Positions 1-5,688 of a DNA stretch of 5,688 bases are shown here, in pieces. Origin of the DNA: a virus (lineage: Duplodnaviria > Heunggongvirae > Uroviricota > Caudoviricetes); the IMG/VR virus record IMGVR_UViG_2681813269_000003, positions 1-5,688 of that record; one strand, given 5' to 3'. How positions within the stretch are numbered: the first letter of the stretch is position 1; each line of letters starts with the position of its first letter. Position numbers and translations under genes: made by a program. Under the pieces are notes generated by a model that was not told where the DNA came from, searched no databases, and worked only from the letters and a program-made list of their open reading frames with translations.

Positions 1-22
1 TCCTGTGCCGTTTTTCAGGTAT

Positions 23-44
23 AAAAAAACCCGCATAAAGCGGG
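23..44 (-). terminator. Rho-independent terminator downstream of Q (tR'-like)
   Basis: All-GC 5-bp stem cccgc (30-34) / gcggg (40-44) with 5-nt loop ataaa. On the minus strand it is followed directly by a run of 7 U (plus-strand A-run 23-29). It lies about 80 nt downstream of the Q stop codon at 124-126. Confidence 0.5.
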
Positions 45-123
45 CTCTTTCAAATGTCCATGTCTGCTATTCGCCTCGCGGTACAGCTTTGCGAAGCGTA
101 CAAGAATTGAAGCAGTTTTTACG

Positions 124-678
124 TCAAAAAGCAATAACTTTTTTCTCTATACCAAAAGCCATAACCATTGGTTTGTACAAAATAAATTCTGCCACCTTTA
201 GCCAATGCTCAATGCGTCTTTCACAGGTTCTTAAACTCCATTTCGGGTGTGCATCATTCAGCAGTTCAGCCATTTTGCGTTTGGTCATCCCCCGCCCCTC
301 ATACCGTTGCCGAAGGACGCTAATCAATCCTGGATGCTCTGCCAGCACCTCACTTATGACCCGATCAATACATAACGCCTCTGCATCAGTACAATGCGCC
401 AGCCAGCTCTTTTGCTTACCGTTAATCATATCCCGCAAAAAAGCCTCAAGTTCAGACTTGTTCAGACCTGCTTTTTTCATCCTCCGGAGCGCCTCGTTAA
501 TTGCCGTTTTTGTCAGCTTTTTAGAGGTCAACATCAGGTTAAACATATTCCCCGTCTTACCGCCACCAATATACGACCAGCGCCCCCACATACGTAGTTT
601 TCCCTGAATCCAGACACTTTCCAGCGTGGTGAGACGAAGGTGTTCTCCGCTTTTTCCTGTATTCGTTGGGTAAATCAT
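124..678 (-). CDS. Phage late-gene antitermination protein Q (Q82/QuuD-type, Phage_antitermQ-like)
   Basis: 184-aa ORF starting at the ATG at 676-678, preceded by SD GGAGGGA (revcomp of 685-691); the ATG overlaps the upstream gene's TGA as ATGA. N-terminal region carries a W-G-x-W motif (LRMWGRW) as I recall from QuuD-type Q proteins; C-terminus (MTKRKMAELLNDAHPKWSLRTCERRIEHWL) looks like a sigma region-4-type HTH. Position after the nin-like genes and before a terminator matches lambdoid Q. The track's longer 224-aa start at 798 is rejected because it overlaps the upstream gene and lacks an RBS. Confidence 0.6.
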   Translation of the reverse strand: MIYPTNTGKSGEHLRLTTLESVWIQGKLRMWGRWSYIGGGKTGNMFNLMLTSKKLTKTAINEALRRMKKAGLNKSELEAFLRDMINGKQKSWLAHCTDAEALCIDRVISEVLAEHPGLISVLRQRYEGRGMTKRKMAELLNDAHPKWSLRTCERRIEHWLKVAEFILYKPMVMAFGIEKKVIAF

Positions 679-965
679 AAATATCCCTCCTTTCTCCAGA
701 TTTCTTGTGTGCGAAAAACACCTTCTGCATGCATCAGGCGTAATTCTTCTTTGGTGTAATCGCTGGTTTTTACCCGCCCGTCGATTAAATCGTGGCACGA
801 GCTACAGGCAATCGCTGCCTGCATATCGTGTGGCTTTATCGCTGTTCCGCACGTTCCCGCCAGTCGGTAATGCGCCAGCACAGACGTTTCCGGATCGTGA
901 TTGCAGTAGCCAGGAATTCTGACGGTGCACATCTGCCCCCGCGCCGCTTTACGTAAATCCACCAT
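675..965 (-). CDS. DUF1364 family protein (YbcO-like putative nuclease, nin region)
   Basis: 96-aa ORF, ATG at 963-965 with SD GGAG about 10 nt upstream. Conserved pattern DLRKAARG..C.VRIPG.CN..PETSVLAH.RL.G.CG...KP.D..A.IACS.CHD.ID.R matches my recollection of E. coli DLP12 YbcO (also 96 aa). Its start overlaps the upstream stop (TAATG) and its stop overlaps the Q start (ATGA). Confidence 0.75.
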   Translation of the reverse strand: MVDLRKAARGQMCTVRIPGYCNHDPETSVLAHYRLAGTCGTAIKPHDMQAAIACSSCHDLIDGRVKTSDYTKEELRLMHAEGVFRTQEIWRKEGYL

Positions 966-1564
966 TACGCAAACTCCAGCAGCTGCGCGGCCACATTTTC
1001 GACTTGTTCCGGAGAGGAAAATTTACGGAACAGAATCCAGTTCCACAGCACATTCAGAACAGATTTATAAACCTGCTGAAACTCGGTTTCGTCCATATTC
1101 GCAAAAGCGATGGATTTTGCCCGACGCCCGCGGCTACCGTCCGGATAAAAATGTTCGGTGTAAAATCCAGCCTGAATGGTTACCCACTCGCGAAAAGCCT
1201 CAAACGACTTTAGCAATGCCGTATCCCGGGTTCTGCGTGTCGCAACTGTATTCAGATATTGCTCTGCGGCTTCGCTCAGAGCTGGCGTATGTTCCCGACC
1301 TACTGATTCGCACAGGTAATCAACGAAACCAGACAGCAGTTCTCGTTCGCGAGGCGTGATCGCCCCACCGACCGGAGTCCAGTAATCGAAACCCAGTTGC
1401 AGGAGTTTGAAAAAACGCTTGTGGAATGCGTAGTTACACACACGCTTAAAGTCTGCGTGTATCCACTCACCTATTTTGATTTGATGCAGAAAATCGCAAC
1501 TCTCCGGCGTCGCCGGGAGAAGTAATCCGGAAGAGGTTTGTTTGACCAGTTGTATATGTGCCAT
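965..1564 (-). CDS. Phage nin-region hypothetical protein (DUF1367-like, tentative)
   Basis: 199-aa ORF from the ATG at 1562-1564 (MAHIQLVKQ...), with SD GGAGA 6 nt upstream. The track's longer form begins at a TTG at 1604-1606 that overlaps the upstream stop and is not favoured. Translationally coupled to the downstream DUF1364 gene. Family name is from memory of gene neighbourhoods, not a verified match. Confidence 0.6.
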   Translation of the reverse strand: MAHIQLVKQTSSGLLLPATPESCDFLHQIKIGEWIHADFKRVCNYAFHKRFFKLLQLGFDYWTPVGGAITPRERELLSGFVDYLCESVGREHTPALSEAAEQYLNTVATRRTRDTALLKSFEAFREWVTIQAGFYTEHFYPDGSRGRRAKSIAFANMDETEFQQVYKSVLNVLWNWILFRKFSSPEQVENVAAQLLEFA

Positions 1565-1602
1565 CGGCTTTCTCCGGTGGCACGGTGTTACACAGCAGGA
1601 GT

Positions 1603-1890
1603 TCAATCCTGCTCAAGATTGTAGATGAGTTTATTCTTCAGCAAAAGCAGAAAACCAGCCTTAAAACCAATCTCTTTCAAAACCCGTAATGATGTGACAA
1701 ATTCGTCCTCACGCAAAATAAAACCGTCCGTCAGAAGTCCATTACAAAAATAAAATAACACAGCACCGCTCTTCCTTTGTTGAGATTGCAAACATCTAAT
1801 GCGGCAATGGCTGACAATCGCTCCATTCTCAACGCGCACAGCATAGAGGCCATTTTCACTAAAAATTTCACGCAATTCTTCGATTTTCAT
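1603..1890 (-). CDS. Hypothetical protein, 95 aa (AT-rich moron; positional equivalent of rem in the Qin prophage)
   Basis: ATG at 1888-1890 with SD GGAAGG 8-9 nt upstream; single clean ORF. Visibly AT-rich relative to flanking genes. Sits between hok and the nin-like genes, where K-12 Qin carries rem, but I cannot verify sequence homology. Confidence 0.5.
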   Translation of the reverse strand: MKIEELREIFSENGLYAVRVENGAIVSHCRIRCLQSQQRKSGAVLFYFCNGLLTDGFILREDEFVTSLRVLKEIGFKAGFLLLLKNKLIYNLEQD

Positions 1891-1971
1891 CTTCAGAATC
1901 CTTCCAGATAAATAGCTCTCCCCTGTTCGGGGTCCATCCCTCTTCTCCCTGCGCGCTACTTAAGTGAGTCG

Positions 1972-1999
1972 ATTCTATCTGCGAAGGTGCGCGAATCAA
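1972..1999 (-). promoter_or_regulatory. Putative sigma70 promoter for the 95-aa ORF and downstream nin/Q genes
   Basis: On the minus strand: -35 TTGATT (plus 1994-1999), 16-nt spacer, -10 TAGAAT (plus 1972-1977). The same hexamer pair occurs in the putative hok promoter. Confidence 0.3.
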
Positions 2000-2016
2000 A
2001 TTCACCGGAAATAAAC

Positions 2017-2064
2017 AACAAAAAACCCGCCGAAACGCTGAGAGATCACAGCGATGGGCGGGTT
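2017..2064 (-). terminator. Putative intrinsic terminator at the 3' end of the hok mRNA
   Basis: 8-bp stem 2023-2030 (aacccgcc) / 2057-2064 (ggcgggtt) followed on the minus strand by a U-rich run (plus A-run 2017-2024). The loop is large (26 nt), so this is only moderately convincing. An additional strong 8-bp GC hairpin lies at 2105-2130, immediately 3' of the hok stop. Confidence 0.4.
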
Positions 2065-2139
2065 AAGTGCGGGTGCGTTGAGGATGCCTGACACATCAGA
2101 GGTGGGCGGGGATGGGATCAGCTCCCCGCCCGGTCACTC

Positions 2140-2295
2140 TTACTTCCTGGATTCGTAGTCTACGAAGACAGCGACCTCCGTCTGGCCGGTTCGGATTCGT
2201 ACCTCACAGAGGTCTTTCCTCGTTACCAGTGCCGTCACTATGACGGTTAAACAGATGACGATCAGGGCGATTAACATCGCCTTTTGCTGCTTCAT
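2140..2295 (-). CDS. hokD: Hok-family type I toxin (HokD/RelF-like small membrane protein)
   Basis: 51-aa ORF MKQQKAMLIALIVICLTVIVTALVTRKDLCEVRIRTGQTEVAVFVDYESRK, matching my recollection of E. coli HokD/RelF except for the last few residues. ATG at 2293-2295 with SD AAGGAG 9 nt upstream. Confidence 0.85.
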   Translation of the reverse strand: MKQQKAMLIALIVICLTVIVTALVTRKDLCEVRIRTGQTEVAVFVDYESRK

Positions 2296-2352
2296 AGCCT
2301 GCTTCTCCTTGCCTTTCGGCATGTAAGAGGCTAACCTACATGTGCAAAGCAT
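2140..2352 (-). CDS. mok: Mok-like leader ORF (in-frame N-terminal extension of hok, modulator of killing)
   Basis: In-frame ATG at 2350-2352 with its own SD GAGG about 8 nt upstream gives a 70-aa product MLCTCRLASYMPKGKEKQAM + Hok. This resembles my recollection of K-12 MokC (ML.TCR...KEK.AMKQ..., 69 aa, in frame with HokC). Confidence 0.55.
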   Translation of the reverse strand: MLCTCRLASYMPKGKEKQAMKQQKAMLIALIVICLTVIVTALVTRKDLCEVRIRTGQTEVAVFVDYESRK

Positions 2353-2471
2353 GAAATTGGCCTCAGATTAATGTTAAGCGTCTTGCCGGACGCGTAATGT
2401 TAACTGGGGCTTTTCTCTATCTGCCTTTTGGTGTTCATGCCTGAAGCAGATAGCCTCAAGCACCCGCAGTC

Positions 2472-2501
2472 ATTCTACTTACCTCGCCAATATGAAATCA
2501 A
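2472..2501 (-). promoter_or_regulatory. Putative hok/mok mRNA promoter
   Basis: On the minus strand: -35 TTGATT (plus 2496-2501), 18-nt spacer, -10 TAGAAT (plus 2472-2477). The predicted start near 2466 coincides with the 5' element that is complementary to the mRNA 3' end (2454-2467 versus 2069-2083). Confidence 0.4.
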
Positions 2502-2522
2502 TCAGAAAGGTGCCCCATAAAA

Positions 2523-3209
2523 TCACTCCTTCTCTTCTTTACCGTAGTGGAGTTGACCAATTTTGATAAGAGGGCGTCCCTGAGATTTGCGGTGTAGATT
2601 GGTATCGCGCAGAGAATACACACAGCCACAATATTCCTGCTGATAGAATTTTTCGCGCTTGCTGATTTCAATCATACGGGACGAGCCGCCCTGCTTGCGC
2701 CAGTTATAATCCCAGTACACCATGCCCGGATAATGCGCGACGGCTCGCCGCCCACAGTCGTTAACCTGCTGCATATTTTTCCAGCGTGAAATGCCCAGTG
2801 AACTGCTGATCACACTGAAACCATTTTCAGCGGCGTACAGCGCTGTCCGCTCAAAACGCATGTCAAAACACATGGTGCAACGGATCCCTCGTTCGGGCTC
2901 CCATTCCATTCCTTTGGCTCGTTCAAACCAGTTGTCTGTGTCGTAATCAGCATCAATAAACGGCACGCCGTGTTGTTCAGCAAAGCGAATATTCTCATCC
3001 TTACGAATTAAATACTCTTTCTGAGGATGAATGTTCGGGTTGTAGAAAAAGATGGTGTAGTCGATTCCCGAGGCCTGAAGCGCCTCCATCACCTCACCGG
3101 AACATGGAGCACAGCAAGAGTGCAGTAGTAGTTTGTTTGCCCCGTTTGGGAGCTCCAATTTGGGCCGTTTGAAATCAGCAACTGTCATAAATATGTTTAT
3201 TGGGGTCAT
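2523..3209 (-). CDS. queH: QueH-like epoxyqueuosine reductase (DUF208 family)
   Basis: 228-aa ORF with the Cys-rich motifs I associate with QueH: [12 protein letters not shown] near the N-terminus, [11 protein letters not shown] centrally, and [12 protein letters not shown] near the C-terminus. Start codon is uncertain: ATG at 3207-3209 or the ATG at 3186-3188, neither with a good SD. Confidence 0.7.
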
Positions 3210-3356
3210 AAAAATATCAAAGAGTGTAGCATTAGAACGGGGCTATCGGAAACAGATGTGTGACTGCTCCCCGCCCTTTCGGGTGGTCTCCTGATGATTT
3301 GAGGGTGCAGAAATCCCTCCGGTTAAGGATTAAATTTTTAACAGTGCTAAATTTAA

Positions 3357-3770
3357 TTATTCAGTTCTGGATTTTGTCGCCCTGCGTATCCGCGCTTTCG
3401 CGTTACGCTCAATCTGTATCAGCTTTTCTATATTTCTCCGCCTTTCCTGTTCCTCCTGGCGCAATAGCCTTACATCATCTGCCAGTCTGGTTTCTCTTTT
3501 TGCCACAGAGAGCATCCAGTCAAACGGCTCCACAACCGCACCGCAGATTTTACAGCGGACCTGACGCTCTTTTTCGTCAACCCGTACAGAGGCGTGATGG
3601 CAATATGGTCTTTCCGATGGCTCATAAAGAAAATTAACCTGATTACGAGGGTCATCCTCTTTTACCGGAAATAAAACGATATTGCTTAACTCATCTTGGT
3701 GATGCTGCCAACTTACTGATTTAGTGTATGAGAATGCCAGCGGTAATTGAAGCCTGATAGCTAATTTCAT
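3357..3770 (-). CDS. Hypothetical phage protein with putative zinc ribbon (C-H-H ... C-x-x-C) and basic coiled-coil C-terminus
   Basis: 137-aa ORF with ATG at 3768-3770 immediately after the upstream stop (TGAATG) and a strong SD AGGAGG about 11 nt upstream. Contains YCHH...(15 aa)...CKICG, followed by a Glu/Arg-rich tail (LLRQEEQERRRNIEKLIQIERNAKARIRR). Confidence 0.55.
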   Translation of the reverse strand: MKLAIRLQLPLAFSYTKSVSWQHHQDELSNIVLFPVKEDDPRNQVNFLYEPSERPYCHHASVRVDEKERQVRCKICGAVVEPFDWMLSVAKRETRLADDVRLLRQEEQERRRNIEKLIQIERNAKARIRRATKSRTE

Positions 3771-4193
3771 TCACAGTATCGCCTCCTGAAAATTACCCTG
3801 ATAGAAAGCCAGTACACGCTGCATAGCTTCGCTCTTCCGGCACTCGCGACAGATTATATTCAGGCGCCTGTCGTAGCGGCGTATTTCTCCGTCAGGTAAT
3901 GACCAGATAAGGTCCGGATCAACAACAACCGGTTTCCTCACCTTTACTCTCGAGAGTTTTTTGCGGGCGCTTTGCCAGTCCTTGCGAGCCTGTTCAGACG
4001 GGAATAAGCCGTAGCCAGAATTATATACATCACCACTTGCGACCAGTTCTATGCATAAGCGACCGACAGACGCACGACTGATACCTGTTTCATCTGACAA
4101 CTGCCGAATCGTGACCCGACCGTCCTGATGCACGAGTTCCACAATTCGCGTCTTCAGTTCTTCCCGCTGTTCGGGAGTAAAAGGTTTCGCCAT
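3771..4193 (-). CDS. Hypothetical winged-helix (HTH) DNA-binding phage protein
   Basis: 140-aa ORF with ATG at 4191-4193 and SD GGAGGA (revcomp of 4197-4202). N-terminal segment IVELVHQDGRVTIRQLSDETGISRASVGRLCIELVASGDV has the pattern of a DeoR/MarR-like winged helix. Translationally coupled to the downstream zinc-ribbon ORF. Confidence 0.65.
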   Translation of the reverse strand: MAKPFTPEQREELKTRIVELVHQDGRVTIRQLSDETGISRASVGRLCIELVASGDVYNSGYGLFPSEQARKDWQSARKKLSRVKVRKPVVVDPDLIWSLPDGEIRRYDRRLNIICRECRKSEAMQRVLAFYQGNFQEAIL

Positions 4194-4207
4194 AAATCCT
4201 CCTGAAA

Positions 4208-4954
4208 CTACTTAACAACCCTCGAATGGCTAACATTCGGACGCCAGCTCTCCCAGTTAAAATTCACCCAGCGCCCGCCGTTCATGACCATGCGATCCAT
4301 CACCCGCTCGCCGAGCAATGTTTTCATCACCTCATAGTTCAGGTTTGTCAGCATCCCCACGCTGCGCATCGACGCTGTCCGGCGATCAACAATCTGGTGC
4401 AGCACCACCTGCTCGTTTTTCGTCTCGCGCTGAATGCCAATTTCATCAAGAACCAGCAGATCCACTTCGCACAGCTCCCGCAAAAATTTTTCGCCTGACT
4501 GCCCGTCGTCATAGCTGGCGTGCAGGGCGCTCATAACATCAGCCACGGTAACCACAATCACTGTCTGACCGTCTTTCAGCAGGCGATTCCCGATAGCTGC
4601 CGCTAAGTGATTCTTCCCGGTACCAGGTTTTCCGCTGAACGCAAAATTTGTACACCCGGTCATCAGTTCATCGGCGATGGATTTCGCCTGGCTTAACGCG
4701 TATCGCTGGCCGTCGTTCTGCACCTGGTAATTCGCAAACGAGCATTTACGGTGCAACGGCTGGATGCCTGAGCGATTCAGAATTTTTTCCACCCGCAACT
4801 GGCGATTCAGGCGGTTGATCTCCTCGCTACGTTTCTGGCCTTCAGCAAGTTGCCACTCGCGCCACTCCGCTACCGTTCTGAATGGGGCGGTTACATGTGG
4901 CGGGGTCAGTCGGCGGATGCGTTCCAGAACGCCGCCTGTCGCAATATTTTTCAT
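4208..4954 (-). CDS. DnaC-family replicative helicase loader (phage replication protein, AAA+ ATPase)
   Basis: 248-aa ORF collinear with E. coli DnaC as I recall it (for example NRSGI.PLH..CSF.NY and MLTN.N.E.M..LLGERVMDRM). Walker A FSGKPGTGKNHLAAAI and Walker B DLLVLDEIG are present. ATG at 4952-4954 with a G-rich SD. It diverges from host DnaC, so it is a prophage paralogue. Confidence 0.9.
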   Translation of the reverse strand: MKNIATGGVLERIRRLTPPHVTAPFRTVAEWREWQLAEGQKRSEEINRLNRQLRVEKILNRSGIQPLHRKCSFANYQVQNDGQRYALSQAKSIADELMTGCTNFAFSGKPGTGKNHLAAAIGNRLLKDGQTVIVVTVADVMSALHASYDDGQSGEKFLRELCEVDLLVLDEIGIQRETKNEQVVLHQIVDRRTASMRSVGMLTNLNYEVMKTLLGERVMDRMVMNGGRWVNFNWESWRPNVSHSRVVK

Positions 4955-4960
4955 GGTCCG

Positions 4961-5296
4961 TTACCCCCTGAAGCCTGGCGGGATCGCACTGTCCGGCAAC
5001 GAGACGGTGTTAACCTGTCGGAGCAACGTCTCAGGCCGAACACCTTTCGGCGCGAACAGGCCCTGGTATTCATTGGCGATGCTGTGTCGAATCACCTGCT
5101 CAGGTGTAAAACCCTGCTGACGGAATTTTTCCAGTTCCCGTATCGCCCCGTTAGCGCCCTGCTCCGTTCGAATCGGTTTTCGCAATGCCTGTCTGAACCG
5201 GACCCACTCATGCCAGAGTGTTTCCGGCAACCAATCGGGCAGCTCAATAGCCTCCGGCTCGAATTTTTTAGACGCTCGTTTTTGGCGAGGGGGAGA
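4961..5296 (-). CDS. DnaT-like primosomal protein C-terminal domain (3' segment of a frame-disrupted replication initiator gene)
   Basis: Open frame from the stop at 5297-5299 down to the TAA at 4961-4963. It ends ...RQVNTVSLPDSAIPPGFRG, matching the E. coli DnaT C-terminus (...NTVSEPDSQIPPGFRG) as I recall it; KKFEPEAIELPDW parallels DnaT KFAMYPDWQPDADF. There is no ATG or GTG in this frame before the TTG at 5228-5230, so translation probably continues from upstream segments. Lies immediately upstream of the dnaC-like gene, as in the host dnaT-dnaC operon. Confidence 0.6.
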   Translation of the reverse strand, partial: SPPRQKRASKKFEPEAIELPDWLPETLWHEWVRFRQALRKPIRTEQGANGAIRELEKFRQQGFTPEQVIRHSIANEYQGLFAPKGVRPETLLRQVNTVSLPDSAIPPGFRG

Positions 5297-5308
5297 TCAG
5301 TATTTAGA

Positions 5309-5347
5309 TCTTCCTCTTCCTCTTCCTCTTCCTCTTCCTCTTCCTCT
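5309..5347. repeat. Hexanucleotide tandem repeat (TCTTCC) x 6.5
   Basis: Directly visible: six full tcttcc units plus tct. On the minus strand one frame encodes 12 consecutive Glu (GAG/GAA alternating). Confidence 0.9.
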
Positions 5348-5417
5348 GGTAACGCTTTTTGATCCGTTTGTGTAACGCTGGCAGCGTTACCTTTTCGTTT
5401 CAGTTCGCGTATTTTTG

Positions 5418-5688
5418 TTACTCGCTCGTTTGTAACCGCCCGTTTTTTTTAGAGCTTTTTCCGTTATGACGTTCAAAGTTAGGTAGAGAAAGCCCTCCGT
5501 CATTTTCGACCAGCCATCCAACCTGAATTAACGCATCAGCAAAACCAGACATAAAAGTGATGCGATCTATTGCACTTTTTGTAACGCCGCGAGCGTTACA
5601 ATCTGCATTACCGTCTATCATTTGTTGATCCGCCCATGCCCAGAAGCGAATAACCTGAGGTAGCCTGAGTTTAACGGACACTCCTTCC
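5418..5688 (-). CDS. Replication initiator N-terminal segment (partial; 5' end probably beyond the window edge)
   Basis: Minus-strand frame open from the window edge to the TAA at 5418-5420 (...GVTKSAIDRITFMSGFADALIQVGWLVENDGGLSLPNFERHNGKSSKKNGRLQTSE). The GTG at 5679-5681 has GGAAGGA immediately adjacent with no spacer, so the true start is probably upstream of the window. It ends just after an A8 homopolymer at 5443-5450. Confidence 0.45.
   Translation of the reverse strand, partial: EGVSVKLRLPQVIRFWAWADQQMIDGNADCNARGVTKSAIDRITFMSGFADALIQVGWLVENDGGLSLPNFERHNGKSSKKNGRLQTSE

Follow-up and report, generated by a model that had tools for sequence, protein, structure and literature searches.

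The window analysed here, a stretch of 5,688 nucleotides from a Caudoviricetes virus record (IMGVR_UViG_2681813269_000003), raises the question of why something resembling a single gene is spread over three reading frames. On the minus strand of 5688-4961, six-frame translation and the ORF list revealed three consecutive coding-looking segments, each in a different frame. The N-terminal segment ends at a premature stop, TAA 5420-5418 (its frame reads ...VIRFWAWADQQMIDGNADCNARG...FERHNGKSSKKNGRLQTSE). The middle segment, which contains 12 Glu, has no stop between 5448 and TGA 5094-5092 (reading KKRAVTNERVTKIRELKRKGNAASVTQTDQKALP-E12-DLNTDLPLAKNERL...). Behind TGA 5299-5297, the frame of the C-terminal segment opens at 5296 and runs to TAA 4963-4961 (reading SPPRQKRASKKFEPEAIELPDWLPETLWHEW...IPPGFRG). 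An A8 run is located at 5450-5443 and a C5 run at 5293-5289 of the same strand. An earlier note on this DNA had described the layout as a replication initiator gene split by two frame changes, and all of its coordinates were reproduced exactly. The repair that it proposed, one A added to the A-run and one C to the C-run, did join the three pieces into a single ORF when computed.

An intact version of the gene, ydaU, is present in close relatives of the window. Window positions 1-5656 are 98.9% identical to E. coli FDAARGOS_944 and 98.7% identical to FDAARGOS_943, collinear and with the same gene order, and ydaU is intact in both. Within ydaU five differences from FDAARGOS_944 were observed: one synonymous base, A8 for A6, the loss of 10 bp, six GAGGAA units versus three, and unrelated sequence beyond 5656. 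When two A were removed and the 10 bp restored, the translation corresponded to residues 36-262 of the FDAARGOS_944 protein, with 227 of 227 residues identical, plus six extra Glu. The three-segment layout is therefore not a product of chance, and the idea of one gene lying in three frames is borne out. Not a single nonsynonymous substitution was found across the 227 codons. This gives no sign of long-term neutral decay and would agree with a gene that was inactivated only very recently, in a young clone; a fragment with some remaining activity would also be compatible with it.

Alignment to the intact genes divides the remains of ydaU, all on the minus strand, into three fragments and two lesions. 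Fragment 1 (5418..5655) holds codons 36-113 of the N-terminal domain, followed by an out-of-frame tail up to the premature TAA. Lesion 1 is the A8 run (5443..5450), which is A6 (Lys-Lys) in every examined intact homologue, and it amounts to a +2 frameshift. Fragment 2 (5295..5442) encodes a basic linker and the poly-Glu stretch in the second frame and contains no ATG, GTG or TTG; the ORF list places none in the middle segment before 5247. The 12 Glu are encoded by an in-frame tandem repeat, (GAGGAA)6 (5311..5346). The number of units differs between strains: E. coli relatives have 2-4, and otherwise identical assemblies bearing the insertion sequence IS600 have 3, 6 or 7. Lesion 2 is a single TCCCCCT (5288..5294), the remnant of a 10-bp deletion with a net frame change of -1. 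Fragment 3 (4961..5287) encodes the DnaT-like C-terminal domain, ends in ...VNTVSLPDSAIPPGFRG, and retains the native stop, TAA 4963-4961.

At the second site the intact genes read GATC-TCCCCCT-AAA-TCCCCCT-CGCC (Leu-Pro-Leu-Asn-Pro-Pro), whereas the window reads GATC-TCCCCCT-CGCC; the intact reading at this lesion is TCCCCCTAAATCCCCCT, and the extra 10 bp in the homologues are TCCCCCTAAA. Lesion 2 is the loss of one copy of a 7-bp direct repeat together with the 3-bp spacer. This is the classic signature of a slipped-strand or short-homology deletion, which is the probable mechanism. The earlier note had anticipated A9 and C6 in the homologues; these are indeed single ORFs, but with A6 and the additional 10 bp. 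Likewise, its placement of both breaks on homopolymers holds for the first, a slip in the A-run, but not for the second, a deletion between direct repeats rather than a change from C6 to C5. Its arithmetic of +1 and +1 is correct modulo 3, although the actual events are +2 and -10. Neither lesion was found among matching E. coli genomes. The 10-bp deletion was seen in 0 of 580, all of which fell below 95% identity over the 101-nt stretch, with the listed matches spanning 110-111 nt. For A8, 0 of 162 were identical across the site, the best match covering 99 nt of the 101-nt query.

The intact relative was matched end to end (residues 1-262) by phrog_2509 'replication initiation protein' in PHROGs, with E=1.2e-89. 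The 'primosomal protein' family phrog_6451 also matched (E=1.7e-39), as did phrog_678 'replication initiation O-like' over residues 77-236. In phmmer searches the C-terminal domain (residues 170-262) matched the DnaT C-domain (PDB 2RU8, E=9.5e-5) and DnaT (9ZBT, E=3.2e-4). The alignment to DnaT runs to the last residue, and the tail VNTVS-PDS-IPPGFRG is identical. With E. coli DnaT (PDB 2RU8, 9ZBT, 6AEP) the C-terminal ~93 residues of the initiator align with DnaT residues 92-179, but this domain is all that the two have in common, the N-terminal domain and the poly-Glu linker of the initiator being phage-specific. The NCBIfam DnaT model gave a tail-only match of 16 bits against a cutoff of 201, and membership of DnaT was rejected on that ground. 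Pfam returned no match at E<=0.1 for the intact protein or for the fragments. Judged by these similarities, the labels 'replication initiator' and 'DnaT-like C-terminal segment' given to the gene in the earlier note are justified, and the protein is not DnaT itself.

Once the indels are reverted, the window gene is homologous over its remaining length to the YdaU family of Rac-like lambdoid prophages (PHROG 2509; WP_001737256.1; ydaU of Escherichia phage Rac, MN652886). It shares with this family the operon slot, after ydaT and before ydaV, and the DnaT-like C-terminus. Unlike the family members, the window copy is a pseudogene with the +2 and -10 changes and an IS600, and is not a single uninterrupted ORF. 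In five annotated E. coli examples the intact gene is a single CDS of 262-264 aa between ydaT and ydaV, annotated as 'hypothetical protein', 'phage replication initiator YdaU family protein' or ydaU. The YdaU of the E. coli K-12 Rac prophage presumably has a different N-terminal domain, DUF1376; proteins of 285 aa with DUF1376 are separate genes in four of the related loci read here (L019 and L021-L023). A near-full-length copy of the gene was present in 681 complete E. coli genomes (megablast), and the phage collection gave four near-full-length matches with 91-92% identity, all intact.

The order ydaT-ydaU-ydaV is retained in relatives and in the loci L010, L015 and L017, where ydaT lies upstream of the insertion sequence. 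In the window ydaV (4208..4954, minus strand, 248 aa) is intact and starts 7 nt past the ydaU stop. It encodes a DnaC-like AAA+ helicase-loader homologue, labelled 'ydaV: ATP-binding protein' in relatives, with precomputed Pfam matches to IstB_IS21 and Bac_DnaA. In phage lambda the initiator gene O is followed by the helicase-loader gene P, and repeated dyad-symmetric sites lie within or beside the initiator gene. The window region likewise has an initiator and a loader, with palindromes in or next to the initiator gene; on the other hand, its loader is DnaC-like and not of the lambda P type, and an origin role of the palindromes is only a candidate one. The palindrome GTAACGC-N5-GCGTTAC has two matches in the window with zero expected by chance, one in the linker (5372..5390) and one in the N-terminal-domain coding part (5581..5599), both candidate protein-binding sites. 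A third copy was seen outside the window, 32-33 nt upstream of the ydaU ATG, in L010, L005 and L003. Relative to the ATG the three copies keep the conserved positions -32, +160 and +367, and phage Rac, at 92% identity, shares this spacing. By analogy with lambda O, they may be candidate binding sites for the initiator or a regulator, perhaps with an origin inside the initiator gene.

The right-hand end of the window has a different origin. Homologues from E. coli stop aligning to the window at 5656, and the terminal 33 nt (5656..5688, plus strand, TGAGGTAGCCTGAGTTTAACGGACACTCCTTCC) are the end of an IS600 element of the IS3 family, which continues beyond the window. A 37-mer of this end and four flanking bases occurs in 3143 E. 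coli genomes with up to 43 copies per genome, and many matches to Stx2a phages in the phage collection comprise the IS600 end only. In L010 the same junction closes a 1264-bp element with IS3-family transposase ORFs of 100 aa and 272 aa, flanked by a GGT/GGT target duplication and with ydaU codons 1-35 on its far side. This element is 99.5-99.8% identical to those annotated by PGAP as 'IS3-like element IS600 family transposase'. The window carries the right-hand IS600 junction at 5655/5656. We conclude that IS600 has simply inserted into ydaU, splitting it after codon 35, and the 35 promoter-proximal native codons are cut off from the rest of the gene by 1.26 kb of IS600. Since 5656-5688 belong to IS600, an element that went unnoticed in the earlier note, the frame that stays open up to the window edge, with its GTG 'start' at 5681, does not represent the native N-terminus.

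In several draft assemblies (L019 and L021-L024, positions 1-2462) the far side of IS600 is not occupied by ydaU codons 1-35. In L019 and L021-L023 it holds the 285-aa DUF1376 YdaU and a loader-sized gene from another prophage, for which Pfam gave a DnaC-like match in L019 only. In L024 it holds ydaT and an unannotated 292-aa ORF. This arrangement indicates either an IS600-mediated rearrangement between prophages or mis-joining of contigs at the repeat.

Related loci were collected by exact-protein look-ups of two fragment ORFs in a public assembly collection. The look-up of the 89-aa C-terminal ORF returned seven places. The 87-aa ORF, which extends from the IS junction to the A8-induced stop, is indexed in 481 blocks, and 24 contigs were read for it, with at least 10 places returned. 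One locus (L012) was left out of lesion scoring on account of runs of N inside the gene. The 10-bp deletion was present in all 14 scorable clone-related loci, 13 of them with A8 and one with A9. Every locus with the IS600 junction (13 loci) also had A8 and the 10-bp deletion, together with 3, 6 or 7 GAGGAA units. Locus L013 has A8 and the deletion without IS600.

Over window positions 5688-2918 the window and L017 are identical by blastn except for one 34-nt block outside ydaU. L010 is CP010829, S. sonnei FORC_011, the sole confirmed organism name among the fetched assemblies; the CXB accession series has been attributed to S. sonnei (PMC5447701). The joint recurrence of A8 and the deletion in independent assemblies excludes sequencing error as their source. 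On this comparative evidence the lesions are genuine and inherited within a Shigella sonnei-type clone, in which ydaU is a lineage-fixed pseudogene. According to the earlier note, the same three-frame layout in other genomes would have spoken against a split gene. The layout does recur, but it amounts to such an objection in form only, those genomes being clonal relatives with identical inherited lesions.

Two further loci differ in the state of the gene. L008 (GCA_000281815.1; 3768) has A9 and the 10-bp deletion without IS600, and as read from these sequences the A-run length has changed more than once in its related lineage. L009 (GCA_900448305.1), of a different lineage, has A6 and the intact 10 bp, with an independent +1 G frameshift at about nt 494 of ydaU and the same 89-aa C-terminal ORF call.

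How well do other readings of the locus stand up to these data? That the gene is in fact intact and its two breaks arose in sequencing or assembly could be suspected from the position of one of them in a homopolymer and from a suspicious equal-length 34-nt substitution by an IS1 end at 3698-3731, a possible assembly artefact. However, the same A8 and 10-bp deletion were found in 13 other assemblies from different projects, complete chromosomes included, the junction ORF is indexed in hundreds of blocks, the loss of 10 bp between direct repeats is untypical of base-calling error, and the gene is interrupted by IS600 and its target duplication whatever the status of the two breaks; we regard this reading as very improbable. 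Even less credit can be given to two programmed -1 ribosomal frameshifts, at A_AAA_AAC and then at the C-run, that would rebuild the full-length initiator. The heptamer A_AAA_AAC pointed out in the earlier note is in register with the upstream frame, both needed shifts are -1, and programmed -1 frameshifting at A_AAA_AAG is known from dnaX and from orfA-orfB of the IS3 family. The window resembles these systems in having an in-register A-rich heptamer at its first break. It differs from them in that homologues do not share the arrangement, the ancestral A6 is in frame, a second heptamer is lacking (CTC_CCC_CTC does not conform to X_XXY_YYZ) and the gene is disrupted by an IS. Intact homologues, in which A6 keeps the frame and the second site is 10 bases longer, do not need the shifts; the arrangement is limited to one clone without divergence that could reveal selection; IS600 has removed the native start, the ribosome-binding site and the first 35 codons; and the A9 of one related assembly shows the supposed slippery site itself to be unstable. 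The note's reluctance to invoke programmed shifts is supported by the absence of the arrangement from diverged homologues and of a heptamer at the second site.

It is also very improbable that the fragments are expressed separately and that one of them has kept or gained a function, such as an N-fragment that binds the origin palindromes and interferes with related phages, or a DnaT-like domain translated from TTG 5230. Gene callers do predict the 87-aa and 89-aa ORFs in many assemblies, the residues are perfectly conserved and candidate binding palindromes are present. Against this, the 87-aa ORF begins at a GTG inside the IS600 end, where a Shine-Dalgarno-like AAGGAG abuts without spacer, the middle piece lacks a start codon before 5247, and the GGAGG nearest to TTG 5230, the sole possible C-terminal start, lies ~18 nt upstream of it. 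Conservation is moreover accounted for by clonality and recency, and the A-run (A8/A9) and the repeat number vary with no sign of constraint. A slim chance may be granted to a related conjecture. The N-terminal fragment, or a separately initiated DnaT-like C-domain, would be expressed from an IS600-borne outward promoter, bind the palindromes or the host primosome, and modulate incoming Rac-like phages or host replication restart, with the A-run and (GAGGAA)n tuning the product.

A phase-variable (contingency) locus was also considered and rejected. The A-run does vary (A6, A8, A9), but each member of the clone has the 10-bp deletion and hence no ON state, and the carriers of A6 belong to a different, intact lineage.

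The locus is thus almost certainly a pseudogene of a YdaU-type lambdoid-prophage initiator, with a 10-bp deletion, an A6 to A8 expansion, an in-frame repeat expansion and an IS600, carried by a degenerate Rac-like prophage in a genome of the Shigella sonnei type. Of the options left by the earlier note, a genuinely decaying gene is the one that agrees with the lesions being shared by the clone and absent from intact homologues. The intact initiator combines an N-terminal domain and a DnaT-like C-terminal domain with a basic, poly-Glu-bearing linker between them, and its usual partner is the DnaC-like YdaV encoded downstream. The 10 bp were presumably lost by slippage or recombination between the two 7-bp TCCCCCT repeats, the A6 run has grown by two to A8, and the (GAGGAA) repeat has expanded in frame. 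IS600 has inserted after codon 35 with a 3-bp GGT target duplication. The distribution of the lesions suggests that the deletion came first, followed by the change in the A-run and finally by IS600. A full-length initiator can no longer be made, the three-frame appearance is the footprint of the two indels, and the prophage would be unable to start its own replication. On the other side, ydaV next to it and the genes farther downstream have stayed intact.

Pseudogenisation of this kind is already known from Shigella. IS600 is among the five IS that have expanded in every Shigella, and pseudogenes make up no less than 5% of the CDS; of those in S. sonnei, 50% are caused by IS and another 12% combine an IS with a second inactivating mutation (PMC7373316). 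The window belongs to the same class of events as the IS-driven pseudogenisation described by Hawkey et al. 2020 (PMC7373316), with an IS600 insertion and frameshift indels combined in a single CDS, a state that is fixed inside a lineage but variable from one lineage to the next. There is no substantive difference, the affected gene being prophage cargo here and not a metabolic gene, and the case is one further example of IS-plus-indel decay of Shigella genomes. It has little significance beyond the right annotation, which is a single IS600-interrupted, doubly frameshifted ydaU pseudogene instead of two or three small hypothetical ORFs, in a Rac-like prophage without the means to make its replication initiator. 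The IS600 junction together with A8 and the 10-bp deletion forms a clone-specific marker. As a small variable-number repeat with 3, 6 or 7 units in the clone, the (GAGGAA)n tract could also lend itself to subtyping.

Some further features were noted elsewhere in the window. Positions 3698-3731 are identical to the first 34 nt of an IS1 terminal repeat (GGTGATGCTGCCAACTTACTGATTTAGTGTATGA), and this copy replaces, base for base, the native 34 nt GCATCAAAGGAGAGGAGCATGGAAATAAAACCAG of FORC_011, FDAARGOS_944 and L013. The native block holds the ribosome-binding site and ATG of a 118-aa gene, and the swap creates a longer ORF of 137 aa (3357-3770). This is the sole block in which the window departs from L017 in the blastn comparison, and its equal length suggests either an IS1 scar or a genuine IS1 junction at which the consensus or the assembly went wrong. 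Many E. coli relatives have the DUF1627 gene ydaW between ydaV and the DUF977 gene (L001 and L002, 2962-3727), but this prophage type lacks it. The DUF977 gene (3771-4193) directly follows ydaV (gap 4194-4207), as in FDAARGOS_944 and FDAARGOS_943. A hokD-type toxin gene (2140-2295) and a gene for the epoxyqueuosine reductase QueH (2523-3209) are apparently intact, and are so annotated in FDAARGOS_944.
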